Positions 175 through 24,981 of a stretch of 64,000 bases of DNA are shown here, in pieces. The notes beneath the pieces were generated by a model that ran no database searches, was not told the DNA's origin, and saw nothing but the letters and a program-made list of their open reading frames with translations. This stretch comes from a phage. The stretch's first letter is position 1. The number at the start of each line of letters is the position of its first letter. The stretch is from the NCBI GenBank assembly GCA_012549035.1, contig GCA_012549035.1_4805.1; one strand, written 5' to 3'. The position numbers and the translations under genes are program-made.

Positions 175-1047
175 TTAGGCCGATGGTGCAACGCCGCCCG
201 TCACCGTAAATATATCATCACGACTTGCTAAATCATATTCAAGTTGCATGATGACAAATGTGGTGTCGTTCAAGCTTGGGTTTAAGACTGATTTGAATTT
301 CACACCTTGGGCAAGCTTCAAATCCGCGTTATACATGCAAGTGAAGTCAGCACCCCACTCGTTCCACATCGGTATTCCGACAAATTCCTCAATCACCGTT
401 ATCTGTTCTGGATTCAGAATTTTGTCTTTATCCTTGACGATGAGCGTATCATCATCGATATATGCCGCAATAGAGTTCCTTTGATAGTTCTGAATCTCAA
501 GCAACAAGGCGGCTGCAACATATGTTGTGCGGCCTGGGTTAACAAGGCGCTGATTGTTAATCGAAGTATCGCATATAACAGTATCAATATCCATTTGCTT
601 TGCCGACCACTCCACAAACTCTTTGAATGTTGGGTTTGACGGTGCAGCTTGAGTGATAAACTTAGTCCTGTTTATCTGGTTGGTGTAGCAAGTGATGCGT
701 ATGACGATGTTCGGCGGCGGCGCTGTTATCTCGACCGTTGTGACTTGCCCCTTGTAGACTAAGTTGCTACTAACAACGTTGCCTTCTCTATATCCAGCTT
801 CAATTGTTACGTTGACATAATTCGCCGCCAATTGGCCTTGATCACGCAGACGTTTGTTGAATGCGGTGAAGTTGGAAAGCAGGTACTCTCTCAAGTACCC
901 TGTCAATCCTGCAACTTCGATTGTGGCCTTATTCTGCACGGAAAGTGCTGCCTTTTTGATTCGGCATCTGAGCATCAATCCTTCATCAAGCACTTGGCTT
1001 GTGCCATCCGGCATAGATAAGGTGACTTTAAGGATTCTCTTTTTCAA
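175..1047 (-). CDS. putative tail/baseplate protein (290 aa)
   Basis: Long ORF directly downstream of the tape-measure gene on the same strand; track start is TTG, first ATG at 1014; no motif recognised. Confidence 0.5.
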   Translation of the reverse strand: MKKRILKVTLSMPDGTSQVLDEGLMLRCRIKKAALSVQNKATIEVAGLTGYLREYLLSNFTAFNKRLRDQGQLAANYVNVTIEAGYREGNVVSSNLVYKGQVTTVEITAPPPNIVIRITCYTNQINRTKFITQAAPSNPTFKEFVEWSAKQMDIDTVICDTSINNQRLVNPGRTTYVAAALLLEIQNYQRNSIAAYIDDDTLIVKDKDKILNPEQITVIEEFVGIPMWNEWGADFTCMYNADLKLAQGVKFKSVLNPSLNDTTFVIMQLEYDLASRDDIFTVTGGVAPSA

Positions 1048-1051
1048 ATTA

Positions 1052-3232
1052 TCACCACTTCAAAGGTGTAGCAGTAAGGTTGTTTATGTCGTTGATATCA
1101 TCTTGTTCAAGCACCCGTTTCGTTTCGAATGCCGTGCTGCGTGGGTCTTGAGCGCCGTTGACGTTGATGACAACGTTTTTCTGACCCATAGTAATATCAC
1201 GCCCACCAGGTCGACTATTCGCGGAAAGGTCGCCGCCATATTTCTGGAATGCTTCAAGCTGGAATGCAGCAAGACGAGCGTTTTTCATCGCTTCGGCTTG
1301 AATGTTCGGTCTTACACCTGGAGTTGAAGCCAGTTGCATGTTTTTAATATAATCCCTTTGCGTGCCAAGCTTAAGGTAAGTTTGAGCAAAGTCAATATCA
1401 CCTTTGTTGACTTGTCCCTGCATCAACTGCTCAACTGGTACGTTCAGGTATCCTGCAATGGCTTCTTGCAATTGCCTGTATTGCACCGTTTGGCGCGATT
1501 GGCCTTGTACTGGTGCATAGCTGCCCTTTGGCGCTTCCGCTCCGCTACCGCTAAGTACTGGAGTAACTGGTGCACCTTGCGGCGCTGCCGTGGCATACTC
1601 ACCATTGGATTGTCGGTCGAGAGCGGCCATGACCTTTCCAGGATAAGCGCGTGTATTCTTGCCCCAGCCGCTGCGGTCGTAGCCACCGTGATACATCGTC
1701 AGCGCAAGATTCCAATCGCCGTTGGCAGCGTTTAAATACTCTTTCAACAGTTGAGCGCCGCCCATAATGTTTTGTCGAGGATCATTGCCATCGGTTATTC
1801 CAAGACCCTTGAAGTTAGAAGGCATTATTTGCATCAAACCAGTCGCGCCTGCTCCGCTCACAGCATTTGGATTGAATCCAGATTCAACTTCAGTCACGGC
1901 CTTCATCATCGCCACAGGTATGCCATAGCGTTTTGAAGCTTCCTCATATATTGAGTCATACGCTGTCGGGTTTCCTGACCCAAGATTATTCCCTATGGTC
2001 GCGCCAGTATTCAATGCAGGCGTTCCAGGCATCGCGGATTGCCCTGCGCTGCGCCCAATTTCACCTGCCCATGCCGCCCAAGCTTGACGCTCATCAATCA
2101 CGCCAGCAAAAGTTGACACGGCGCTTGAAAAAAGATTTATATCACGAGTGAAAAGCGCCTGTGCAGAACGTTGTTCAGCAGCGTTCTGCTCTTGATTCCT
2201 CTGGCGTTTCACATCGCCGTCTGCCATCTGCGTGATCCATCTATCAACGGCACGCTCGTGACGCTCGTTGACAGCGGCCTGCTTGTCGAACGGATGTTTC
2301 AAGTCAGCAATGAAATTGTCGACAAATTCGCTCCATCCGTCAGACATTCTTTGGAACATCATCTGGAATCCTTCGACTGTATCGGCGGTTTTGCTGACAA
2401 GCGTCGAGAATGCAGGCATAACGTTTTCACCGATGACCAGTTCAATACGCCGCCAATCTTCTTGAATTTGCCCCATACTATTTCGTATAGTCTCAAGAGC
2501 AGCTTGCTGTCTTTGCAGCTTCGCGGTTTCTTCGTCACTTATGCGCGTGCTTTCTTTCACAGACTGGTTGCGCTCACGAAGGGCGCGGACTTCATCAGCC
2601 GTGAATCCTGCCAGAGCACCAATGGCACGCGCGGTTTGCTCATTAACACTTCTCAGCTTTGTTCCAATTTCATCAAGCAGCTGATTCGTGTCTTTGATGC
2701 CGCCGTTACTGTTGAAAGGACTTGCCCCCATCTTGTTCAGCAACAAGTTGTCCTTGTTCATCACATCAGGGTTGGTGTATGCATTGAATGCCAAATTAGA
2801 AGCTTTGCTGATTAAATCGCGCGACCCCTGTGCGCCAAGGATGCCCCCTGAACTTTCATTCAACTGTCGTTGTAGTTGTTCGACACCCATTGGAGAGAGT
2901 CCGGCTTCAAAACCAAGCTTTCTTTGCGCTTCGTATTCTTTTCGAACATCAACGATGGATTTGACGACGACGGCCAATCCTGCGACAACAGGAACGAGCG
3001 CGGCAAAACGATATGTCAGCCGCGCAAGGATTCCGTCAATAGACCCCAGTTCAGCTGTGAGAGGCTTCAGCTCACCAAACACATCTTTGAATGCTCCGGT
3101 GAAGTCTTTACCAGCGGCCTTTGCCTTTTTGTTTGTCTGATCAACCTTATCTTGCAATTGCTCAAGACGATTGATGGACTCTTTCAAGTCCACCGTATAT
3201 TGAAGCACAAATTTTTCTAATGAGTCAGACAC
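1052..3232 (-). CDS. tail tape measure protein with soluble lytic transglycosylase (SLT) domain
   Basis: 726 aa; N-terminal coiled-coil-like region and hydrophobic segment AALVPVVAGLAVVV; SLT-like block VTEVESGFNPNAVSGAGATGLMQIMP...AQLLKEY; lies after the tube/assembly genes. Confidence 0.8.
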   Translation of the reverse strand: MSDSLEKFVLQYTVDLKESINRLEQLQDKVDQTNKKAKAAGKDFTGAFKDVFGELKPLTAELGSIDGILARLTYRFAALVPVVAGLAVVVKSIVDVRKEYEAQRKLGFEAGLSPMGVEQLQRQLNESSGGILGAQGSRDLISKASNLAFNAYTNPDVMNKDNLLLNKMGASPFNSNGGIKDTNQLLDEIGTKLRSVNEQTARAIGALAGFTADEVRALRERNQSVKESTRISDEETAKLQRQQAALETIRNSMGQIQEDWRRIELVIGENVMPAFSTLVSKTADTVEGFQMMFQRMSDGWSEFVDNFIADLKHPFDKQAAVNERHERAVDRWITQMADGDVKRQRNQEQNAAEQRSAQALFTRDINLFSSAVSTFAGVIDERQAWAAWAGEIGRSAGQSAMPGTPALNTGATIGNNLGSGNPTAYDSIYEEASKRYGIPVAMMKAVTEVESGFNPNAVSGAGATGLMQIMPSNFKGLGITDGNDPRQNIMGGAQLLKEYLNAANGDWNLALTMYHGGYDRSGWGKNTRAYPGKVMAALDRQSNGEYATAAPQGAPVTPVLSGSGAEAPKGSYAPVQGQSRQTVQYRQLQEAIAGYLNVPVEQLMQGQVNKGDIDFAQTYLKLGTQRDYIKNMQLASTPGVRPNIQAEAMKNARLAAFQLEAFQKYGGDLSANSRPGGRDITMGQKNVVINVNGAQDPRSTAFETKRVLEQDDINDINNLTATPLKW

Positions 3233-3235
3233 AGT

Positions 3236-3652
3236 TTACCCCTTGTTTGGAGTCTCGCCGCTGAGGAATGGCGCGATTAATCGCATCGATTCGCCGATGA
3301 ATGCTGCAGCCATTTCGCCGCCAGCTTGTTCCCAGTAGCCTTCACGCTCGGCGTGAGTATCTGGGTTTATACCGTTCTCCATGAGGACTGCTTCGAAGAC
3401 TTCTTTAAGGTTTTCCCAGTCACCAAGATGGTTGTCAATTAGTGCACCAGTACTTAATGGGATTTCTTGGCCCACATCAAGCTCGACTTTTGCGAAGCTC
3501 AACACTTCCATCGTATACTCTGAACGAAAAGCAGGGTCTTTCGACATTGCAAATTCGACAAAGCGACGCTGAATATTCCAGCCTTCCATCGCAGTCATTT
3601 TGCTGATTTTAATTTCTACTGTACGACCAGTTTGTTTGTTGGTGATCTTCAT
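3236..3652 (-). CDS. hypothetical tail assembly protein (138 aa)
   Basis: ORF packed tightly immediately upstream of the tape-measure gene, same strand. Confidence 0.55.
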   Translation of the reverse strand: MKITNKQTGRTVEIKISKMTAMEGWNIQRRFVEFAMSKDPAFRSEYTMEVLSFAKVELDVGQEIPLSTGALIDNHLGDWENLKEVFEAVLMENGINPDTHAEREGYWEQAGGEMAAAFIGESMRLIAPFLSGETPNKG

Positions 3653-3653
3653 T

Positions 3654-4214
3654 TTATATTCCTACTGTTGATTTTATTTTATTATATAACGAACTCACAG
3701 TTGTAGTCAAACTGACTGGTTCTTTAATAGCAACACCATTTGATGATTCGTCTGCAGATTGTTTAGGGTCGAAGCTTCCTTGAATGCTAAATGACGTTTG
3801 CTCGAAGGTTATTACTATTGAGACTCCATTCAAGTTTTCTTCTGACTGGGTTATTTCAACGTCGGACATCGACATTTTACTGGCAATGATGCTTCGTGAA
3901 GTTATTGAAAATGTGACTTCGTCATCATCAAATGAATTTATGATATTTTCAATTGTAGACTGGTCATTGCAAATTACGTTTAACGCCATATGGGCTGGCA
4001 TTACAACCTTTGTCGCCTGTAAATTGCTTACTGATGACGTGCTTGATACTTCGACAACCTGCATGGCTGTACCAGCAAGAGGGAATTGAGTTGTTTCTGC
4101 TGGGGATGTTATTTCTGCAGAAACAGGTGAAAGCCTTGTCCAGACAGGAAGACCTGTTGACTCATTCGTTATGGTCAAAGATTGACCAGAAAGCAGAATC
4201 GAAACGAAGTCCAT
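3654..4214 (-). CDS. hypothetical tail protein (186 aa)
   Basis: ORF in tail module, 1-nt spacing to neighbours. Confidence 0.55.
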   Translation of the reverse strand: MDFVSILLSGQSLTITNESTGLPVWTRLSPVSAEITSPAETTQFPLAGTAMQVVEVSSTSSVSNLQATKVVMPAHMALNVICNDQSTIENIINSFDDDEVTFSITSRSIIASKMSMSDVEITQSEENLNGVSIVITFEQTSFSIQGSFDPKQSADESSNGVAIKEPVSLTTTVSSLYNKIKSTVGI

Positions 4215-4747
4215 CAGAACATCCCCTTGATACCATTCATCACCTTTGTAGCGACGCCAGTGACGCTGGCAGAAGTTTCTTTTATGTATGCAATGCCGCG
4301 CTCTATTACTGTTGAGTCGCCTGCCTGCGCTGTTTGAATAGACACATCCTGCTGTGTTAATATCTCATGGAAGACCAATTGTATGGGCTGAGACGTTATA
4401 TTGTCAGCGTCCTGGCTGAAGTTGTTATTTTGCAGCACCATACGTTCGAATATTAGACCACGGGAATTAATTGTGTATATAGTCGACCTGTTTTGCAACA
4501 TCTTGGCTATTGCATCTGATGCGCTTTTCGTCTGAGCTATCACGGTGACAGTGAGTATTCGCGGCATCTTTACTCTGCCATCGACAATATAGCTGCCGTC
4601 TTCCCTTTGGTTTTTGAATATCTTCGCTTGGAGTCTTATTTTGACGTTGACTATGGCCCATCCAAGCGTGGATACTTCTCCAAGGTTGAAGCTCTTTATC
4701 GTGAAGCTTCTGTTTGATAGACTATATGACAGTAAATCGATAGCCAT
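4214..4747 (-). CDS. hypothetical tail protein (177 aa)
   Basis: ORF in tail module, overlapping stop/start with neighbours. Confidence 0.55.
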   Translation of the reverse strand: MAIDLLSYSLSNRSFTIKSFNLGEVSTLGWAIVNVKIRLQAKIFKNQREDGSYIVDGRVKMPRILTVTVIAQTKSASDAIAKMLQNRSTIYTINSRGLIFERMVLQNNNFSQDADNITSQPIQLVFHEILTQQDVSIQTAQAGDSTVIERGIAYIKETSASVTGVATKVMNGIKGMF

Positions 4748-11917: not shown

Positions 11918-12556
11918 TTAACGAGTCAATTGTACAATGGTATAAGTGGAAGACTGGACGCTTGGGCCGGAAAGGGCAATAGCAGTCGGGTCAATCACGA
12001 TACCGCCTGGAATGGCAACCATGCCAGTTGGCAGTGAGCCAGTGTAGGCGATAATTGCACCGATAGGCAAGTTGTTCGGGTTGTTACCGCTGGAAATGCC
12101 TTTAGGTACATAAGCGAGCAGGTCGCCGTAGTTCAGCGTCTGCGGACTGGTGCTTGGGTTGAATACTTCAACTACGAGGCCCGTGCACATATCGTAGAAC
12201 TCGCCTTCGCTATATTGAGGCAGAACCATGCTGGCGCCCAAAGGACCAGTAGAGTTGCCATACAGAGCGTAACGCTTGCTGTTGCCAAGGATGCCATAGT
12301 AATTGGTGCCGCCCAGTTCAACTTCAAAGTCCTGCGCGCCCAAGGTTTTGGTTTGACCAGTACCCATTAAAGATACGTCATCTTTAAAACCAAACACACG
12401 GCTAATGGCGTTTACGTTTGCACCGTCGTTGGCGCTAACGATTCGGCCTGGCTTCCCACGCTGTGGGCCGTCGCGAACGATGTCGCCAGGAAAGCCAGTT
12501 GTATATTGACGGCCTACACTAGTTTGGAAAGTCATGTTTATTCCCCTTTCAACCAA
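11918..12556 (-). CDS. head structural protein (212 aa)
   Basis: Gly-rich ORF between scaffold-like and capsid genes. Confidence 0.55.
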   Translation of the reverse strand: MVERGINMTFQTSVGRQYTTGFPGDIVRDGPQRGKPGRIVSANDGANVNAISRVFGFKDDVSLMGTGQTKTLGAQDFEVELGGTNYYGILGNSKRYALYGNSTGPLGASMVLPQYSEGEFYDMCTGLVVEVFNPSTSPQTLNYGDLLAYVPKGISSGNNPNNLPIGAIIAYTGSLPTGMVAIPGGIVIDPTAIALSGPSVQSSTYTIVQLTR

Positions 12557-13956
12557 GCTTCAAATGCTTCGTCAGTTGCTGCAGAATCCGCAGCGGCCTT
12601 TTGTTTTGCGACTACACGCTGTTTTTGACCGTGTTCAACGCCGCGCAGATAATTATCCACAACGTCAAACTCAGCACCATCAACGCACTTCAAGCCTAAC
12701 TTTTTAGCGCCATATTTCGCTACGGACTTGGAGTCCATAGTTGCATGATCAAAGGCACCAACAACTTTAGACAGGCGCTGGTAGAGGCTATTCTTACGAG
12801 CAGAATCAGCGTAGAAAGCAGCAACTGCTGAATCAGATGCCATTGAGTGTTCCCCTTTTGCTGGACCTGGCGACGCTTTCGCCGCTTTTGTCGGTTTGTC
12901 ATCTTTTTCGACCGAAGCCCCCTTTACGTTGCTGTTTTGCAGGCCGCTAACCACATCTTCAGCTTTGTCGCAAGGTGATACATCTTCAGCCTTGACTTCA
13001 ACTTCTTCGTCTTTGACTTCGGCTTCAACTTCTTCTTCATCACCTACCGCGCCACCTTTCAGTTTTGCAATAAGTGCTTCGATTTGGCTGATCAATTGCG
13101 GAAGTTCGCCGCCAGCGTGAGATTCAGTTTCAACTTCAAACTTCTCTTCACCTTCTGGGGTTTCTTCTGCTTCTGCCTTGACTTCTGGATCAACCATTAC
13201 TTCTTCACGATTTTCGGTTGAGTCCTTCTCTTCTGCTTTCACTTCAACTTCATCCTGATGAGCAGCTTCAGCACTCTCTTCGTTCAGAAATTGTTCGAGC
13301 GCAGGGATCAGTGATTTCAGCTGTTCAACAGCATTATCACGCGCTTTACCTTTTAACGGTTTTGGCATGTCTAAATCCTCGTTGGATGGTGTTACAGTCG
13401 TCAAACAAAGATGGTCAAAGCAACGACCATCCAGCACCCGTGCACCTGGTACTCGACCAACGTCCACGAGAGCAATGTGGTTGCCGCGAAGAGTTGTCTG
13501 CACCACTTCATACGGCTGCCCGTCAAACTCTCCAGACTGTATGATGAATTCACAGTCATAGCCCAAAGACAAGTCAACCTTTCCAGAATCAATGGCCTTC
13601 TTCAGACGACGGCTAAACACTTTAAGGTCGCCGCGCATCCATGGCTTGTCATAATAAACATTGCCAGTCAGAACGCCATCAACTCCATACTCTTCGGGTG
13701 CTGTGTTATCCTCATCACCTTCAAATCCAGAAAGCATTTCGTGATTGTCGATGAAAGGGATATTTTTGAATGAATCTATCGCTTCGGGGTCTTTCACCGC
13801 TGACTCAGGGCGATAGACTTTTACGATGCGATTCGGATCACCATCAAGACCAACTTGACCAGCAGAATAATCAAAAATGCCAAATGACGAAATTGGACAA
13901 CCCATAATCGTCAAGAATCCATTTTTGTCAATTTCGCGTGCCGTTTGCATTCGCAT
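12538..13956 (-). CDS. scaffolding / prohead protease-like protein (472 aa)
   Basis: First gene of head operon; globular N-terminal half followed by a highly acidic E/K/A-rich C-terminal half typical of scaffold proteins. Confidence 0.6.
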   Translation of the reverse strand: MRMQTAREIDKNGFLTIMGCPISSFGIFDYSAGQVGLDGDPNRIVKVYRPESAVKDPEAIDSFKNIPFIDNHEMLSGFEGDEDNTAPEEYGVDGVLTGNVYYDKPWMRGDLKVFSRRLKKAIDSGKVDLSLGYDCEFIIQSGEFDGQPYEVVQTTLRGNHIALVDVGRVPGARVLDGRCFDHLCLTTVTPSNEDLDMPKPLKGKARDNAVEQLKSLIPALEQFLNEESAEAAHQDEVEVKAEEKDSTENREEVMVDPEVKAEAEETPEGEEKFEVETESHAGGELPQLISQIEALIAKLKGGAVGDEEEVEAEVKDEEVEVKAEDVSPCDKAEDVVSGLQNSNVKGASVEKDDKPTKAAKASPGPAKGEHSMASDSAVAAFYADSARKNSLYQRLSKVVGAFDHATMDSKSVAKYGAKKLGLKCVDGAEFDVVDNYLRGVEHGQKQRVVAKQKAAADSAATDEAFEAWLKGE

Positions 13957-14066
13957 CCACCCTCAAATAAGTATTGTGTATTATATCTAATGAAAAAAAC
14001 TTAGGCAAACAATAATTATGGTTTGAATATGTATAACAACCGATATAGCCGCGCCTTTATTAGTGT

Positions 14067-14346
14067 GATACGGATGATACGGATAAAATGAGGCGTATTT
14101 TTATCCGTATCGGTGTATAAGCCGCGCTATCACTGGTGTGCTACGGATGATACGGATGATACGGATACTTTTCATATATAAGAGTTTATAAAAAAAAATA
14201 AAATTAAATTATATATATAATTTTAAATTAATTTATTTGAATTCCTATATAGTACGGCGGCAACGCGTATCATCCGTATCATCCGTAAGATTCTTTTGAA
14301 AACAATAACTTACTTGATACGTATGATACGTCATTATACGTATAAA
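14067..14346. repeat. iteron-rich intergenic region A (9-bp GATGATACG-type units, AT-rich core)
   Basis: TACGGATGA x3 tandem at 14143-14168; GATACGGATGATACGGATA at 14067-14085; inverted copies TATCATCCG x2 at 14265-14293; AT-rich palindromic core 14170-14250. Confidence 0.7.
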
Positions 14347-14373
14347 ACTCGCGGCAATCCTTTGCCGATGAAT

Positions 14374-14511
14374 TCAGTGGATATTAAATAGCACTCCTGC
14401 AACTAAAACGCCAATCAGCATTGAGTCATAAACAGCCCATTTCCAAGAAAGCAAAGAGTTGCAATTAATATTTCGCACTTTAACATAATGTGACTGAATA
14501 ATCTTTTGCAT
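14374..14511 (-). CDS. small hydrophobic protein (45 aa)
   Basis: ATG at 14511 preceded by GAGGA 4 nt upstream; C-terminal hydrophobic stretch LIGVLVAGVLF; below track length cut-off. Confidence 0.35.
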   Translation of the reverse strand: MQKIIQSHYVKVRNINCNSLLSWKWAVYDSMLIGVLVAGVLFNIH

Positions 14512-14521
14512 AACTTCCTCT

Positions 14522-15442
14522 TTAGTTCAGCTTGATTGCGGTGATCTGTCCGTAAACGGTAGATGTCAATGCCTCTGTGCATTGATAGTTTAGATACACG
14601 TTGCCAGGCGCGGCAAGAGTGATTATCTTTGTTGGAATATTGCCGCCGAAACGACCTGCAGCCCGAATGCCAGCTGACATCGTAAATGCATCATCCGTAA
14701 TATCTGAATCGCTTGTTGACAATTTGGCTGTAATTCCGGTATTCGCTTGAATTCCTGCTGTCGCGACAGTCAACTGACTTGCCGTCACAAGCCACTTTCC
14801 TGCAGGAAGGTTTAAGGTCGCCAGATTAACCAAAGTGGTTGGAGGATTGCTAACACTGTTCGTGGCACTCTGGACGGTGCTTTCCGCTGCGTTAAGCACA
14901 CCGGAACCATCAATTGATAGAGTTGTACCGACCTTTACGCCGCCTAAAGTAGATGCTGACGCAATCGGCAATGAGTATTGAGTAACGCTAATTGTACCGT
15001 CACCTGCGACGCTTATTCCGCTTCCTATTTTGACGCCGCCGAGAACAGAAGCCGTTGCCGCTGGTAACGTGTATTGGTTGCCGCTTGATTTGACCACTTT
15101 AACGGCGACAGCATTCTTTGACCCTCCAGACTCCATTCCTATAATCACTGCTTCTCCAAAAGCGATGGTGATTGTAGATGCAGTTAAACCAGTCTGCACG
15201 TCTGTTATGTTCATTTTGGGAACTGAAAGTGTCAGATTCGGCTTGCTGGTAGAATCGCCATCATTACCGATCATAAAGAATTGACCAACTGAATTGTATC
15301 CAGACGCCAATGGCGGACTCAATGGAACAATCAGGTTTTTATCGGATGTAAATTCTGAAACAATCGCCAAACCGTTAGCATATACAGCAGGCAATACTGG
15401 CGTTTGTCCAGATAGAGGAAACGTGCTGATTGGTATCGTCAT
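14522..15442 (-). CDS. fiber-like protein with tandem repeats
   Basis: Tandem repeat blocks TLPAATASVLGGVKIGSGISVAGDGTISV / SLPIASASTLGGVKVGTTLSIDGSGVLNA; track start is GTG at 15511, preferred ATG at 15442 with GAGGT upstream. Confidence 0.6.
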   Translation of the reverse strand: MTIPISTFPLSGQTPVLPAVYANGLAIVSEFTSDKNLIVPLSPPLASGYNSVGQFFMIGNDGDSTSKPNLTLSVPKMNITDVQTGLTASTITIAFGEAVIIGMESGGSKNAVAVKVVKSSGNQYTLPAATASVLGGVKIGSGISVAGDGTISVTQYSLPIASASTLGGVKVGTTLSIDGSGVLNAAESTVQSATNSVSNPPTTLVNLATLNLPAGKWLVTASQLTVATAGIQANTGITAKLSTSDSDITDDAFTMSAGIRAAGRFGGNIPTKIITLAAPGNVYLNYQCTEALTSTVYGQITAIKLN

Positions 15443-16302: not shown

Positions 16303-18678
16303 TCAACCTTGCTTCGGTGAATTAGTAGGATTGTTGAGTGCTCCATATGCTTGAGAGCAATCACCCTTCAACCACTCCTTGAATGAGTTTACATCCAATT
16401 CGTGGATTGAGTCAAATCCATTCCAACCGTTACCAAATGATGCTTGATAAGCTTCTTTCGCTTCTTCTGCTGAATCGAATCCAAGCATACATTTGTGTTC
16501 ATCAAACTCGCCAGAGTAGTTATCGTTTTGGTTCACGATAAAAACTTTCGGTGACTTCAGATTTGGACCCACAAAGCAGTCGACTTCATCGCCGTCCGCG
16601 CCCTTGGTGCCCTTGATGAATCCGTAGTGGTGCGGCATCTTGACTGCCCATTCACCGTCAAGGCTGTTTCCTCTACGGATGCTGTTGCGAGGATTCTCAA
16701 TCCCAAGAATCAGTCCATGCAACTTCATCTTAGGTAATGATGCTGCGTCCATCTTTCCAACGTTGTGTCGTAAGTTTACGACATTACCTTTGACGCTTGG
16801 AAGGGTAGACGGTTGCACCGACCGTGAATCTTTTTGAGGGTCAAAATCCACATCCTGACCTTCTTTCAGGTAGTAATCCGCAATACCCTCCAGACCTTCT
16901 TTCAACTGCGTTAGGACATCAACCTGATGGCTTGATTCGTCATCGGTATCGTCCATGTTGATTTCAACAGGTGCTCTGTCAGGGTTTTCCGCCAACTCAC
17001 CACGCGCGGCACCCTCTGGCATAATACCTGTTTCGCTATAGAACTGGCCGCCCATCTTAACGACATCAGCTTTCGCCTGTTCAATATCGGCCTTACCTTG
17101 CAAGACTTCACCAGCAGACTTGCCAAGCAATGCCATATTCTCTGGAGACATCCCTGGGGTTTCTTCTGCTGCGTCTTCCGGCAGACGGTTGTAGCCGCTG
17201 TTTTTGTCGTCTTTGATGCGGTCGCGCTCTTCATCAGGAGAAATGACGCCAGCATCAATAAGAGTTTTGCCAGTGTTGGCTCGCTTATCATTGATTTCTG
17301 CAAGTTGAGTAGCAGTAAGTGAGCCAACTGGTTCCCATGCAACCTTAACATCGACATCCACCCCTTCTGATTTGAGAAGGATTTTGTAATGGCGGTCGAG
17401 AATTTTTGTCAGGTCATGCTGCTGGCACGTTTCCAACTCTTCGTGATAGCTGACCATCTCGAATTCACCAGTGGCATTAAAGCCTTTTGGCGAAGTCCCA
17501 AGCAGTTTGGTCGACGGAACTTTTGCGATTGCGGCCACCAGCTGGTACTGGTTCATGATGATGCTGTCGAAGTCTGACAAGTTGATGTCGAACTGGTCCA
17601 TCTCTTCTTTTTGGCCAAGCACTTTGACTGCATAGTTGTCGCGATACTTGATCCACATCATCAGACGTTCTGCAAAAGACCGCTCATTGGCAATCGCCTT
17701 GTCAACGTCGGTCCGCAGCGTGGTTGTACGCTTGGACATCGCCAGCAATGGCGCTTCGTTAGCGGTACGTTCAGCGGCATAGATGCGTTCATAAATCTGC
17801 TGAGTCAGAGGAATGCCGCCGTAAATATAAGTTGGCTTGAGAATATCAGCTGGCTCATCATTGCGCAAGATGATGAGGTGACTGCGATGATAACGTTGTC
17901 CGCTGATCACCCAGTATTCTGGATCATAGAAGTGCTGTGATGCAGGGTCTGCGGTATTTTCAGACGTCAAAAATGGCATCATCCAATAAGGGTCAACCTG
18001 AATGATTCCCTTGTAAGACCCCTTTGTCACACCATCAATGTTAAAAGGCTTGCTGTAATATTCTGGGTCATCGCTACGCACATCAAATATGATGACGCGG
18101 ATACCAAAAATATTTTTGAATCGTTCGGCTTCAACTAAGTGCTCTTTGATATTAAATTCTTTATCAATTTGCTTTAGGCGTTCGCTTGCCTGCACTGACA
18201 ATTCTGACTCAGAACTGGATTTGACTTCCCAACCTTTACGGACCGCATCGCGGCCTACCATGGAACACGCCTTGTTCACCAGCCAATGCTGTGCGATGAT
18301 GGCACAAGCTTGATAGCCGATGAATGACTGTGACAAATACCAGTTTTGAAGTTGAATAGGTACTGTGTATGGGTTGACCTGCCCTTCTGAACTGATGTTC
18401 TTCAAGGCATTATCCATAACTTTTTTGGATACTGTTGCGGAATCGACTGAACGACCTTTTATGATAGCAACACCGTCGCCATTAATATCAGGCTCATATA
18501 AAGGGAAGTCATCAACCGTTTTAAAGGTCGGTCGATTGCTTTCAGTCTTTTCCCAGCGTTGACCGCTGCCGCGCCTTTCAAGGCGTTCAAACGGTGCCAA
18601 TGGGTCGCCTGGCGGCATCTCCGCTGGTTCGGCTTCTGGTTGCGTCTTCTCCCAGAGTTTTATGCCAAGAATTTTCAT
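16303..18678 (-). CDS. portal protein with C-terminal inorganic pyrophosphatase-like domain
   Basis: Position between terminase and head morphogenesis genes; C-terminal ~130 aa carry YGFIKGTKGADGDEVDCFV and AEEAKEAYQASF, resembling family I PPase signature; track start is TTG 18711, ATG 18678 has an AGGTGG RBS. Confidence 0.7.
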   Translation of the reverse strand: MKILGIKLWEKTQPEAEPAEMPPGDPLAPFERLERRGSGQRWEKTESNRPTFKTVDDFPLYEPDINGDGVAIIKGRSVDSATVSKKVMDNALKNISSEGQVNPYTVPIQLQNWYLSQSFIGYQACAIIAQHWLVNKACSMVGRDAVRKGWEVKSSSESELSVQASERLKQIDKEFNIKEHLVEAERFKNIFGIRVIIFDVRSDDPEYYSKPFNIDGVTKGSYKGIIQVDPYWMMPFLTSENTADPASQHFYDPEYWVISGQRYHRSHLIILRNDEPADILKPTYIYGGIPLTQQIYERIYAAERTANEAPLLAMSKRTTTLRTDVDKAIANERSFAERLMMWIKYRDNYAVKVLGQKEEMDQFDINLSDFDSIIMNQYQLVAAIAKVPSTKLLGTSPKGFNATGEFEMVSYHEELETCQQHDLTKILDRHYKILLKSEGVDVDVKVAWEPVGSLTATQLAEINDKRANTGKTLIDAGVISPDEERDRIKDDKNSGYNRLPEDAAEETPGMSPENMALLGKSAGEVLQGKADIEQAKADVVKMGGQFYSETGIMPEGAARGELAENPDRAPVEINMDDTDDESSHQVDVLTQLKEGLEGIADYYLKEGQDVDFDPQKDSRSVQPSTLPSVKGNVVNLRHNVGKMDAASLPKMKLHGLILGIENPRNSIRRGNSLDGEWAVKMPHHYGFIKGTKGADGDEVDCFVGPNLKSPKVFIVNQNDNYSGEFDEHKCMLGFDSAEEAKEAYQASFGNGWNGFDSIHELDVNSFKEWLKGDCSQAYGALNNPTNSPKQG

Positions 18679-18840
18679 TGTTAACGCCACCTGACAGTGA
18701 AAGGGAATCAATCTATATTATAAATATTCATGTGTTTGTAAGCAAATGATATGTATGGTGATCATAAATAGTTCATAAAATATTTTGCTTTTGTATCATT
18801 TTGAGTTATATTTTAGTTAACCAAACGAAAGGAGATTGAA

Positions 18841-19257
18841 ATGAGCACAACAATTGTATTTGTCGTCTTGCACAACGGCGAAGTCGTTAACGTATGCGAA
18901 TATGAAGAACTGGCAAAGGCCACTGCTGCGCGATACGAAGGTGCTACTATTGACCCGTGGATTTTAGATGCGCGAAACGTCTTGCAGGCGACTTTGGATG
19001 AGTGGTTGTTGGGTCGCAAAGTCTATCCAGTAGACAACATCGACTCAATTCAAGGTGAAACAGTATATTTTGAAGATGAATGCGTTCGCGGCATCGGCAA
19101 ATTTATGGGATTGTGCCCATCTTCATCCAAAAATAAATTTTATCGTATTCAAGTTGAAGAAAACGATATGTTTGACAAAGTTACGCGCTCGATTGTTCCT
19201 GGCGGCGGCACTCCAATATTTATGGCAGAATCAGACATCAAAGGGATTATCAAATGA
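18841..19257 (+). CDS. hypothetical protein (138 aa)
   Basis: Strong RBS AAAGGAGATTGAA-ATG; plus-strand gene between minus-strand portal and terminase. Confidence 0.6.
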   Translation: MSTTIVFVVLHNGEVVNVCEYEELAKATAARYEGATIDPWILDARNVLQATLDEWLLGRKVYPVDNIDSIQGETVYFEDECVRGIGKFMGLCPSSSKNKFYRIQVEENDMFDKVTRSIVPGGGTPIFMAESDIKGIIK

Positions 19258-19496: not shown

Positions 19497-20957
19497 TTAA
19501 AGGTTAGAGAAGAAGCCGGATGCTGCAACAATTGGTTTCATCAATGCCATGATTGCGGCGTCCGCTTTGTTAGGCGATTTAACTCCACGCTTTGCCATAT
19601 CCTTTTTCGATTCAACTTTGAACTTACCAAGAACAGACGTGTCTTTGCGCGGCGCTGACATCTCAAAAAGAAACGTCTCAATTTCTTCCGCAGACCAAGC
19701 AGGAATCCCAAGTTCTGGAATGCCGTCTGTGTCGATGGAAATCAACTCATCGGTCGGATATACGGCTTGCCCTGTCGCATACTCATATGTCTTTCTGAAT
19801 CGTTCGGCAATCTCAGTCCATTTTTGCGCTTTTATGTTTGCGAAATGGTCTTTATTGAGTATTTCAACGTGTGGTAACTCAAGGAAAACGTCATCAGGAT
19901 CATCAACAGCACCTTGCGCGTTGAACGCATTAAATTCGATTCTTGGGAATGTTGGATTTTCATGTATTGCATACTCATTGAGCTCATCAAATTTTGAACC
20001 AGCAAATGCACCGACACCGATGGCGTCATAGGTAATTGACGCGCCGAATGTCAATGCGTCTTTCCAAACTCCGCTTGCGGACTTAAGCAATTCATCTTCC
20101 AGACCTTCCCATGTCTTGATGCCACGTAATACGTTGCCTGTGACGAATGCAGTGGCGTTAAGGTCGTCGCCATCGTCCGCTACGTCAAAGCCTATACGGT
20201 TAGACCCTGACAAACTCCATCCCAGCGTAGGGTGCTTGTGGAGGTTAAGCGCAGCCTTAACGAATGCGCGGTTGATTACAGATTTGTCGCCGCCAGTCTT
20301 CGGCACGCCGCCATAAACGTGCTCTGCCTTTTTCGGGTCACGCTCGTACATGCCTGCAATAACGTCCAGCATTGTTTGCGACAAAAATGGATTGTCTTGC
20401 CAGTTTATCTTTTTAACAATGGCATTCTTCGGCGGTCGCATAACAAAGTTTTGGTAGACGAAATCGGCCTCTTCATCAGGGTTAAAGATGATCCATATTT
20501 CGGACCCTTCTTTACGGATTGTCGGCTCAATAATGTCCCACTGTTCTTCAGTAAGCGCGTGCGCTTCTTCCAGCCAAAGGACGTCAACACCTTCTGTTGA
20601 TTTAATTTCATCAACGTTACGTGCGATACCGTAAAATAGAAATTCAGATTTAGTTCTTTTATGTTCAATAGAGTTCTTTAATAAATTGAACTCATCTTTG
20701 AAATCAGAAATCTCTATTTTGTCTTTTAATAGAGTATATACAGATTCAGAAATCTTGTTCTGGAATTGTCGAACGCAAAGGAATTTTAATTTGAAGTTTG
20801 CCGCCAAATAAATAGCAAAACCAGCGGCATCGTGCGATTTGGAAGATGCACGACCGCCGTATATTACTTTGTATCGCGCTTTTGTCTTCCAGACTTCTTT
20901 TAAAGCAGGATTCAACTGGTACATGACTTTCCAATTATGTGTTAATATTTTATTCAT
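19497..20957 (-). CDS. terL: terminase large subunit
   Basis: 486 aa; N-terminal ATPase block KVIYGGRASSKSHDAAGF (Walker A-like) and overall large-terminase architecture. Confidence 0.85.
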   Translation of the reverse strand: MNKILTHNWKVMYQLNPALKEVWKTKARYKVIYGGRASSKSHDAAGFAIYLAANFKLKFLCVRQFQNKISESVYTLLKDKIEISDFKDEFNLLKNSIEHKRTKSEFLFYGIARNVDEIKSTEGVDVLWLEEAHALTEEQWDIIEPTIRKEGSEIWIIFNPDEEADFVYQNFVMRPPKNAIVKKINWQDNPFLSQTMLDVIAGMYERDPKKAEHVYGGVPKTGGDKSVINRAFVKAALNLHKHPTLGWSLSGSNRIGFDVADDGDDLNATAFVTGNVLRGIKTWEGLEDELLKSASGVWKDALTFGASITYDAIGVGAFAGSKFDELNEYAIHENPTFPRIEFNAFNAQGAVDDPDDVFLELPHVEILNKDHFANIKAQKWTEIAERFRKTYEYATGQAVYPTDELISIDTDGIPELGIPAWSAEEIETFLFEMSAPRKDTSVLGKFKVESKKDMAKRGVKSPNKADAAIMALMKPIVAASGFFSNL

Positions 20958-22629: not shown

Positions 22630-24981
22630 ATGCCAAGGCTAATATTCAAAAACAACTTTGAGGTCGCGCTCGCTCAGCCAACGACGACTTCAGACACCAC
22701 AATCACAATCCGCTCAGGGTCGGGCTTTCCGGCCTTGGGCGCAAACGAGAGTGTAGTGGCGACAATCGTCGACGCTGCAACAGGCCTCCAATTCGAAATC
22801 ATCACAGTAACAGCCGTCGTTGGTGATGTCCTGACCGTTCAGCGTGCACAGGAAGGGACTGCAGCGCGTGCATGGGCTGCTGGTGACATGCTTTCCATTC
22901 GAACAACTGCTGCGACTTTGACGGGTACTGTCCGAAACTTTGGCGTAATTCCTAATGGAGTAAACCTTAACGCGCTGAACGGAAGCTGGTTCGGGCAGTA
23001 TTACCAACTGGCTGATTCTGGGGCATCAATATCACTCAACTATCCTGTCGCACAAGCGGGAATACTTGAAGTTTTACAAACGGGAGTTTCAACGAACGGA
23101 TGTGTTCAGCGATACACACCTTACAACACTAACACTGTATACCAGAGGCTGTATAATGCCATCACATCAACTTGGTCTGATTGGGTTCAAGTTTATAATA
23201 CGCAAAGCGTTATACCAGTCGCAAATGGCGGTACAGGACAAACGACCATCCAAGGGATGAAGTCTGCTTTTGGATTCGGAACGGTCGCTGATCAAAACAT
23301 TGTTCCCACTTCAATGGGCGGTACGGGATCAGCAGACAATGCGCAGGCATGGCTTAACATTCGTCCACAAGGGTCGACTCCGCTGGCTGGCGACCCTGTG
23401 AATGATTATGATGCCGCAACTAAGCGTTGGGTTGAGAACTTAGTAAATACTGGCACCGTTGGCCCAAGCATGAACGGTGTTATGAACTATGGCGTCGGTG
23501 ACTTCCACTTACGCGACAGTCGTGCTTATATTCAACCGTATGAAGTCGTTGCTGATGGGCAGTTGTTAAACCGCGCTGACTGGCCTGAACTTTGGGCGTA
23601 TGCGCAAATGCTTTCTCCTATTGCTGATGCCGACTGGCTTGCCGACCCAGCGAAACGCGGCAAGTATTCACTTGGTAATGGCACAACGACATTCCGTGTG
23701 CCAGACCGTAACGGTATTCAGACGGGATCAATAGATTCTCTTTACGGTCGAGGCGATGGTGGCAATTCAAGTCTCGACGGAACAGTGATTGAATCAGGTG
23801 CACCAGATATTCAAGGTTCCATCCGAACGGTTTCGGCAGCAGCTGTATTTGAAAACTCAGGGCAGAGCGGCGCATTTTACAATCAAGAGGCGACTTATCC
23901 TTATGCAGACCTTGGCAGCATAACTGCGCCAGGCGCTACAACAAATTATCCAAGGCGTGTGAGTTTTTCAGCCAATCGATCAAATTCCGTGTATGGCAGA
24001 ACGACAACCGAAATCCGACCGAAGTCATTCATCGGCGTTTGGGTAATCCGTGCATCTGGTGGGTTCGTGGCGGCGAATACGACTTGGAGCGTTATTAATG
24101 GTGACGCAGTAAAACCTGCAACCGGAACGCTTGTCAGAGGCGGCAGTGTAAAATCTGAATATAAAATTGGCACCAACATTGCGTATCAAGCATTCTTGCA
24201 AGCATACGGTAAGATTGATGGATTAACGTCTGAACAAGGTGCTGTGATATCTAATGGGGTGCAAGAATGGAAGTTTGCGCAAGACGGTACATTTTATTTC
24301 CCTGACTCCATAAATCAAATTGGCACGGAAAGGTCAGACGGGGCGTTGAATGTTAATGCATATCTCAGACCAAAAGACCTTGTTGCGAAACCGTTGAACT
24401 CAGTAGGCGTTTCAGCGTATGAAAGCAACGGCATGAGGATGATAAACTTCAACCAGTCAACACCTGGGTATGTATCATATTTTTCAGGGGATTGGTATGC
24501 TGGCAGTTATACATTCGGAGGCGTTCGAGGCACCGGAGTTGATTTGATGCACGCGCAAATATCCATAAACAATGGGCAAGGCGCTGCAGCAGACTTCAAA
24601 TTTCTACCTGATGGTACTGCTACTGCAGGGAACTGGGTAAGCACGTCTGATGAAAGGGTAAAAACAAATATTCAAAGGATTTCCGACCCGTTAGGAAAGA
24701 TGAGGTTGATCAAGGGTGTGACTTGGGAGCGCCTTGATAAGTCAGAGAAACCGAATGGCATCGGCTTTATAGCTCAAGATGTAGAAGGTGTATTCCCTGA
24801 CGCAGTAAGAACTTTGAAATATTCAAACACGGAACTTAAGGATGGCACGGTTGTAGAGAATATCAAGTCAGTCGACACTTACGGAGTGGCAGCGGCACTG
24901 CACCACGAGGCTATTCTCGCATTGATGGATCAAATAGATGAACTCAAGGCAGAGATAGCCGCGCTGAAAGAAGCGAAATAA
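22630..24981 (+). CDS. tail fiber protein with C-terminal intramolecular chaperone (S74-type) domain
   Basis: 783 aa; C-terminal block SDERVKTNIQ...GVTWERLDKSEKPNGIGFIAQDVEGVFPDAV...LMDQIDELKAEIAALK matches the endosialidase-chaperone auto-cleaving domain. Confidence 0.85.
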   Translation: MPRLIFKNNFEVALAQPTTTSDTTITIRSGSGFPALGANESVVATIVDAATGLQFEIITVTAVVGDVLTVQRAQEGTAARAWAAGDMLSIRTTAATLTGTVRNFGVIPNGVNLNALNGSWFGQYYQLADSGASISLNYPVAQAGILEVLQTGVSTNGCVQRYTPYNTNTVYQRLYNAITSTWSDWVQVYNTQSVIPVANGGTGQTTIQGMKSAFGFGTVADQNIVPTSMGGTGSADNAQAWLNIRPQGSTPLAGDPVNDYDAATKRWVENLVNTGTVGPSMNGVMNYGVGDFHLRDSRAYIQPYEVVADGQLLNRADWPELWAYAQMLSPIADADWLADPAKRGKYSLGNGTTTFRVPDRNGIQTGSIDSLYGRGDGGNSSLDGTVIESGAPDIQGSIRTVSAAAVFENSGQSGAFYNQEATYPYADLGSITAPGATTNYPRRVSFSANRSNSVYGRTTTEIRPKSFIGVWVIRASGGFVAANTTWSVINGDAVKPATGTLVRGGSVKSEYKIGTNIAYQAFLQAYGKIDGLTSEQGAVISNGVQEWKFAQDGTFYFPDSINQIGTERSDGALNVNAYLRPKDLVAKPLNSVGVSAYESNGMRMINFNQSTPGYVSYFSGDWYAGSYTFGGVRGTGVDLMHAQISINNGQGAAADFKFLPDGTATAGNWVSTSDERVKTNIQRISDPLGKMRLIKGVTWERLDKSEKPNGIGFIAQDVEGVFPDAVRTLKYSNTELKDGTVVENIKSVDTYGVAAALHHEAILALMDQIDELKAEIAALKEAK

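Follow-up and report, generated by a model that had tools for sequence, protein, structure and literature searches.

A portal protein with a C-terminal InPase domain of the inorganic pyrophosphatase fold in a Wifcevirus of Escherichia coli

In a 64,000-nucleotide stretch of phage DNA (GenBank assembly GCA_012549035.1, contig GCA_012549035.1_4805.1; the window hereafter), the portal gene encodes a protein of 791 amino acids (aa) in which the portal core and a barrel helix are followed by a linker and by an InPase domain (Pfam PF18823) that, judging from profile comparisons and a predicted structure, is a trimmed version of the β-barrel of family I inorganic pyrophosphatases (PPases) (Table 1). 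The assignment of the domain to PF18823 is virtually certain. The profile matched the portal with an E value of 3.6e-46 and a score of 156.8 bits (cutoff 26.8), covering profile positions 12 to 135 of 135, and the isolated tail of the protein reached 160.4 bits. An earlier note on this DNA, made from its letters, had placed a pyrophosphatase-like domain at the portal C-terminus (16303..16740, that is, portal aa 647–791 plus the stop codon), and this was borne out by the profile, the fold, and the residue conservation described below; since PF18823 spans aa 649–771, a similarity limited to the DGD motif, which the note had named as refuting its proposal, is excluded. The hidden Markov model search that it had suggested gave a divided answer, with PF18823 far above its cutoff and the classical PPase family PF00719 below threshold. 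PF00719 alone being insufficient, the identification relies on PF18823 together with the fold.

The AlphaFold2 model of the last 155 aa, built on a 17-sequence alignment, had a predicted local distance difference test score of 86.3 and a predicted template modelling (TM) score of 0.81. The top 50 matches of this model in a Foldseek search of the PDB were all family I PPases (best E value 2e-4, probability 1.0, TM scores of 0.4–0.5), with the OB-like β-barrel of this family, at 12–21% identity between the phage domain and the cellular enzymes. Among predicted viral structures, the best matches were other portal or polyvalent proteins, some of them named “Inorganic pyrophosphatase domain-containing protein” in UniProt. 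In addition, the isolated tail matched stretches of giant phage proteins (PHROG profiles of 700–4,600 positions).

Both peptides that had first drawn attention to the domain are present in the protein, HHYGFIKGTKGADGDEVDCFVGP at aa 683–705 (16564..16632) and GFDSAEEAKEAYQASF at aa 733–748 (16435..16482). The family I PPase signature claimed for this region is real, as DGDEVDC is an exact match to PS00387 (D-[SGDN]-D-[PE]-[LIVMF]-D-[LIVMGAC]), a pattern expected by chance about 1e-3 times in an open reading frame (ORF) of the composition of the portal, and the 31-aa motif region aligns to residues 47–73 of the E. coli PPase with z = 9.1 against shuffled sequences (0 of 500). The second peptide had been likened to the C-terminal helix of E. 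coli Ppa. It does align to residues 153–169 (z = 3.6, 1 of 500 shuffles), although this match is weaker than that of the motif, the segment is rich in A, E, and K, and the equation of the two helices is not secure. The elements of the model follow the order hairpin–helix–strand–helix, collinear with β6–β7, helix A, β8, and helix B of the PPases, and from this order the predicted GFDSAEEAKEAYQASF helix may equally well correspond to helix A.

The size of the family was exposed by an exhaustive HMMER search over the representatives of clusters at 50% identity, which recovered 11,280 of them at E ≤ 1e-3, of which 9,406 remained at the stricter E ≤ 1e-10; a first, word-indexed search for homologues had returned just 16 short proteins or fragments. 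Conservation was calculated on 158 near-full-length domains among the best matches. Residues E661, R668, Y685, G686, D700, Q717, and E727 were invariant, and D695, D697, D726, H728, K729, Y744, and W677 were conserved in at least 93% of the domains (D695, 99%; D697, 94%; D700, 100%; H728, 93%). The aspartates proposed to bind metals thus withstood the check asked for in the earlier note, with D695, D697, D700, and D726 conserved at 94–100%; these four make up the expected acidic, metal-coordinating set, and E661 and E727 are present in addition.

To map these residues on the classical active site, the InPase profile was compared by hhalign with a profile of four PPases (sequences identical to PDB 1faj, 4z70, 2prd, and 1ygz), yielding a probability of 92%, an E value of 7e-7, and 118 aligned columns. 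According to this alignment, E661, Y685, D695, D697, D700, D726, and K729 are the counterparts of E20, Y55, D65, D67, D70, D102, and K104 of E. coli Ppa (PF00719, EC 3.6.1.1), K29 is kept as an arginine (R668), and D97 is kept in the window protein as D719, a position occupied by D in 58% and N in 23% of the family. In contrast, E31 is replaced by a glycine (G670) and Y51 by a methionine (M681), and the strand with R43 is lost in an 8-residue deletion over A38–M45. The counterparts of Y141 and K142 are ambiguous, with Y744 perhaps replacing the former and no conserved lysine for the latter. As a result, the full classical set (E20, K29, E31, R43, Y51, Y55, D65, D67, D70, D97, D102, K104, Y141, and K142) is incomplete in the phage domain. 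This domain is also shorter (about 125 aa versus about 175 aa in E. coli Ppa), with 24 residues instead of 35 between the positions of E20 and Y55, and it carries family-specific invariant or nearly invariant residues (W677, Q717, E727, and H728). Deletions of at least 8 residues were seen relative to all four reference PPases, and the one relative to E. coli PPase agrees, by alignment, with the absence of a β-hairpin described for InPase (Iyer et al. 2017).

Two other alignments of the FDEHK segment were discarded. Comparison of the InPase profile with the single E. coli sequence put FDEHK on YDHIK and misaligned the C-terminal half, for which reason the four-PPase profile was used instead, and a global hhalign run put it on the helix-A motif FFEHYK, which was ruled out because FDEHK is a β-strand in the model, forming the hairpin equivalent to β6–β7.

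In family I PPases, R43, Y141, and K142 hold the leaving-group phosphate; interactions with the electrophilic phosphate and with the metals fall to K29, Y55, K104, and the Asp cluster. Considered with these roles, the residue mapping suggests that the catalytic half of the site was retained and the leaving-group half remodelled, which fits the suggestion of a nucleotide-like substrate by Iyer et al. (2017).

Comparison of the window protein with eight portal–InPase orthologues from other phages and metagenomes, six of them from other genera, showed the InPase domain to match the portal core in conservation, unlike the linker. Identities to the six orthologues from other genera were 57–66% in the portal core and 50–66% in the InPase domain, against 15–24%, with many gaps, in the linker (aa 531–648), 13–27% in the portal N-terminus, and 0–31% in the C-terminal tail. 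Within Wifcevirus, the ratio of nonsynonymous to synonymous substitution rates (dN/dS) of the InPase region was about 0.01–0.02, so the domain is under purifying selection. The candidate catalytic residues were kept in the compared orthologues, with the exception of the metagenomic protein P0025 (D697Q, H728Y).

Two of the metagenomic proteins showed further domains behind InPase. P0020 (1191 aa) has the architecture portal–InPase–ADP-ribosyltransferase (PF03496), and P0025 (1106 aa) that of portal–InPase–bacterial-type topoisomerase IB (PF01028/PF21338), from which the portal tail seems to act as an enzyme carrier. This is the arrangement of polyvalent proteins, with a portal anchor, an InPase effector and, in the sister proteins, an additional effector. 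InPase homologues also occur in other proteins, the largest of 6,421 aa, and within PHROGs whose annotation is virion structural or DarB-like; together with the portal fusion, these contexts are those of phage virion-associated or polyvalent proteins. Separately, tandem InPase pairs within a single polypeptide were observed among the homologues P0017 (1116 aa), P0064, and P0074. A tblastn search of 50,697 phage records with the domain as query gave 471 positive records, mostly from phages of Pseudomonas (294), Vibrio (70), and Escherichia (27), followed by Serratia, Burkholderia, and others. None of 60 sampled phage records with the domain carried the label “pyrophosphatase”, the GenBank names of the protein being “minor head protein”, “portal protein”, or “hypothetical protein”.

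The portal–InPase architecture is already known and curated, in Pfam (PF18823), in UniProt names, and in the work that defined InPase as a domain of virion-packaged polyvalent proteins (Iyer, Burroughs, Anand, de Souza & Aravind 2017, J Bacteriol 199:e00245-17, PMC5512222). That paper reported that InPase lacks the β-hairpin insert found in all structurally characterised PPases and is confined to phage-type polyvalent proteins, described the fusion to a portal in gp124 of Burkholderia phage BcepF1, and proposed either hydrolysis of a nucleotide-like molecule or clearance of inorganic pyrophosphate (PPi) helping early replication or transcription. A literature search found no later papers using the term InPase in this sense, and the domain goes unmentioned in the BASEL paper on Wifcevirus. 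The window portal shares with the InPase of polyvalent proteins the OB-like PPase barrel, the acidic residues, the shortening of the stretch that leads from the first strand to the YG strand, and the association with the virion; compared with the giant polyvalent proteins, it is a minimal form of two modules, portal and InPase, with no processing peptidase in the polypeptide.

The 791-aa protein is the portal of a Wifcevirus, an E. coli myovirus, as the source DNA is 96–98% identical at the nucleotide level to Wifcevirus phages infecting E. coli and Shigella (WFH, ECML-117, FEC19, Mansfield, and Bas99). Its ATG start is preceded by AGGTGG, and an alternative in-frame TTG upstream, at 18711, would give an ORF of 802 aa. 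The protein is covered in full by PHROG 4660 (“minor head protein”), and it matched over its full length the portal gp19 of Pseudomonas phage Pa193 solved by cryo-electron microscopy (cryo-EM) (PDB 9b41, E = 3e-251), as well as gp19 of Pseudomonas phage E217 (PDB 8fvh, E = 1e-189). The profile, the homology to a portal dodecamer, and the head-module setting place it among the Phage_portal_3, Pbunavirus-type portals. Pa193 and E217 gp19 have the same core, barrel, linker, and InPase tail, with an identical motif block (HHYGFIKGTKGADGDEVDCFVGPNL), and differ from the window portal in genus, host, and the diverged N-terminus and linker.

These Pbunavirus portals also indicate where the domain would lie in the virion. 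In E217, the C-terminal barrel reaches into the head and is unfolded once ejection has taken place, with residues 97–528 of 765 modelled, and in Pa193 residues 529–765 have no discernible density; the structural papers (residues ~94–528 modelled) say nothing about what the C-terminal domain is. Residues ~501–530 of the window portal match the barrel helix that points into the head. By homology, we infer that the linker and the InPase domain are inside the capsid, flexible or cleaved, in which case twelve copies of the domain would sit beside the DNA in each capsid. Literature searches yielded nothing specific on mass-spectrometry coverage of the portal tail in virions, and no Shine–Dalgarno-like sequence indicating a separate translation start of the domain precedes M542, M553, M575, M643, or M651. 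At the other end of the protein, the portal N-terminus (aa 1–106; 18364..18678, minus strand), with the low identity between genera given above, corresponds to about 93 residues of Pa193 that were neither visible by cryo-EM nor detected by liquid chromatography–mass spectrometry, which suggests that this portal lineage may undergo N-terminal processing.

We favour, with moderate confidence, the explanation that the portal carries a linker-tethered, active, metal-dependent phosphoanhydride hydrolase as virion cargo. The poorly conserved acidic linker would tether InPase behind the portal core and barrel helix, and the domain, which keeps the metal-binding and nucleophile-activating carboxylates (D695, D697, D700, D726, and E661), would be packaged in the capsid as an Mg2+/Mn2+-dependent hydrolase, representing in their most basic version the polyvalent protein effectors of Iyer et al. 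(2017). Its substrate, met during genome ejection or shortly afterwards, would be PPi or, more likely, a nucleotide-like pyrophosphate. Catalytic activity of the domain is fairly probable; its delivery to, or action in, the newly infected cell is a more tentative proposal, less likely than not. Enzymes are known to be carried in the head through a component of the head or portal vertex in the case of the T4 Alt ADP-ribosyltransferase, the same kind of enzyme as that behind InPase in the sister portal P0020, and of MuF-fused toxins. T4 Alt has a cleavable capsid-targeting sequence, and its injection has been demonstrated. Cleavage and injection of the window portal domain are, in comparison, hypothetical. 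A more specific version, to which we give a low probability, is that the domain is not strictly a pyrophosphatase but a pre-packaged counter-defence enzyme, which would cleave an alarm or immune signal derived from a nucleotide, or a different nucleotide pyrophosphate. The loss of the classical leaving-group site (R43, K142) and the gain of W677, Q717, E727, and H728 would reflect the new substrate, and the enzyme, once freed from the portal by proteolysis, would act from the capsid or portal vertex at the very start of infection.

Several points weigh against the virion-cargo explanation. A covalently tethered domain cannot leave the capsid unless cleaved, and neither a cleavage site nor signs of processing were identified. 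PF00719 scored only 18.0 and 20.6 bits against a gathering score of 23.5, with 25 residues matched, and the residue equivalences are based on alignments of sequences and profiles and on the order of secondary structure, not on superposed coordinates. Several classical active-site residues are missing, which makes the hydrolysis of PPi itself uncertain, and literature searches found no enzymatic or virion-proteomic data on the domain. The tethering, with no recognisable release mechanism, would also suit an enzyme working in the producer cell or procapsid and not in the next host, either with portal that is unassembled or in procapsids supplying PPase-type activity late in infection, for instance to clear PPi from DNA or RNA synthesis, a role compatible with the PPi clearance listed by Iyer et al. 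(2017), or as a tail with a role restricted to assembly and clipped by the DUF2213 protease. The gene for this head maturation protease lies 2.3 kb downstream, and residues 529–765 are invisible in the Pa193 and E217 virions; the protease is a candidate for any processing of the portal tail, its cleavage of the portal being speculation. However, twelve copies per virion would be an odd source of bulk PPase when the host has Ppa, and both the ADP-ribosyltransferase or topoisomerase IB found at the same position in sister portals and the presence of InPase in giant virion-associated polyvalent proteins point to deliverable cargo, leaving the producer-cell role unlikely.

The missing counterparts of E31, R43, and Y51, the lack of a clear equivalent of K142, and the sub-threshold PF00719 score would suit a catalytically dead module that keeps the PPase fold as a spacer, DNA-end contact, or capsid plug. 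This is rather improbable, as the carboxylates that serve as metal ligands and general base, like the counterparts of K29, Y55, and K104, are invariant or nearly so in 158 representatives of more than 11,000 clusters, a conservation not expected of a purely structural role, and the dN/dS values are very low. The exact PS00387 match and the fold could instead be taken as signs of a true housekeeping-type family I PPase (EC 3.6.1.1; a free hexamer, in contrast to a domain anchored on a dodecameric portal) that was recently acquired from a host. With the low identity to cellular PPases, the short sub-gathering PF00719 match, the deletions and lost leaving-group residues, and nearest relatives that are all phage or polyvalent-protein domains, this reading is highly improbable and effectively refuted. 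Finally, a short acidic motif arising by chance in the portal tail, for which nothing speaks but the shortness of the PF00719 match, has a negligible probability and is refuted by the PF18823 score, the fold matches, and the 11,280 homologous clusters.

Table 1. Parts of the portal gene and selected neighbouring genes in the window
Feature	Position	Strand	Basis or remark
Portal gene, 791 aa + stop	16303..18678	-	ORF, profile and structure homology; “portal protein” in phage Mansfield annotation
Portal core, aa 122–468 (PF06381, Phage_portal_3)	17275..18315	-	Pfam E 3.3e-88
Barrel-helix counterpart, aa ~501–530	17089..17178	-	Alignment to 9b41; boundary by homology
Linker, aa 531–648 (~120 aa)	16735..17088	-	Gly/Asp/Glu/Ala-rich, acidic, poorly conserved
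InPase domain (PF18823), aa 649–771 (~125 aa)	16366..16734	-	Profile, model, fold matches
DGDEVDC, aa 695–701	16576..16596	-	Exact PROSITE PS00387 match
FDEHK, aa 725–729	16492..16506	-	D726 aligned to E. coli D102, K729 to E. coli K104
C-terminal tail, aa 772–791 + stop	16303..16365	-	Unconserved; model confidence low
MuF/SPP1 gp7-like head morphogenesis gene, 283 aa	15450..16301	-	ATG 1 nucleotide past portal stop
DUF2213 head maturation protease/scaffold gene	12538..13956	-	2.3 kb downstream of portal
Large terminase subunit	19497..20957	-	Head/packaging module context

The neighbours of the portal gene form a head module that includes the large terminase, MuF-like, head-fibre-like, DUF2213 protease/scaffold, cement protein, and major capsid protein genes. 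The head-fibre-like gene, which follows the MuF-like one (14522..15442, minus strand), matched the phi29-type head fibre family over a short segment (PF11133, E = 1.3e-7, aa 131–170), and its product, whose homologues are annotated as hypothetical in relatives, may be a capsid decoration or fibre. Between this gene and that of the protease, there is a gap of about 565 bp (13957..14521), for which the annotation of relatives lists a single ORF of 45 aa. In this gap, a terminator-like hairpin is present on the minus strand (14367..14352), and a promoter-like site (14008..13980) directly precedes the start of the protease gene, with counts of both not above the shuffled expectation. Two small plus-strand genes were found between the large terminase and the portal (18841..19257, and an adjacent ORF up to ~19493), also present in phages Mansfield and WFC and annotated there as hypothetical; one product, of 138 aa, had no Pfam match, and from where the two genes sit and how they are oriented, they look like a moron-like insertion in the packaging module. 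In addition, the tail fibre gene (22630..24981, plus strand) encodes a C-terminal Peptidase_S74 intramolecular chaperone domain and fits the T-shaped fibre with dual receptor-binding domains described for Wifcevirus in the BASEL paper. Scans of the window for tRNAs and Rfam families detected nothing.

In conclusion, the portal–InPase fusion described here is a published and curated domain architecture that will not surprise the specialist, and it belongs to a very large family, with 11,280 clusters at 50% identity and members in 471 sequenced phages, including the therapeutic Pbunavirus group. Residues 529–765 are left unexplained in the cryo-EM papers on orthologous portals, and the role of a capsid-internal PPase-like enzyme would inform the earliest events of infection, be it the clearing of PPi or the destruction of a nucleotide signal.
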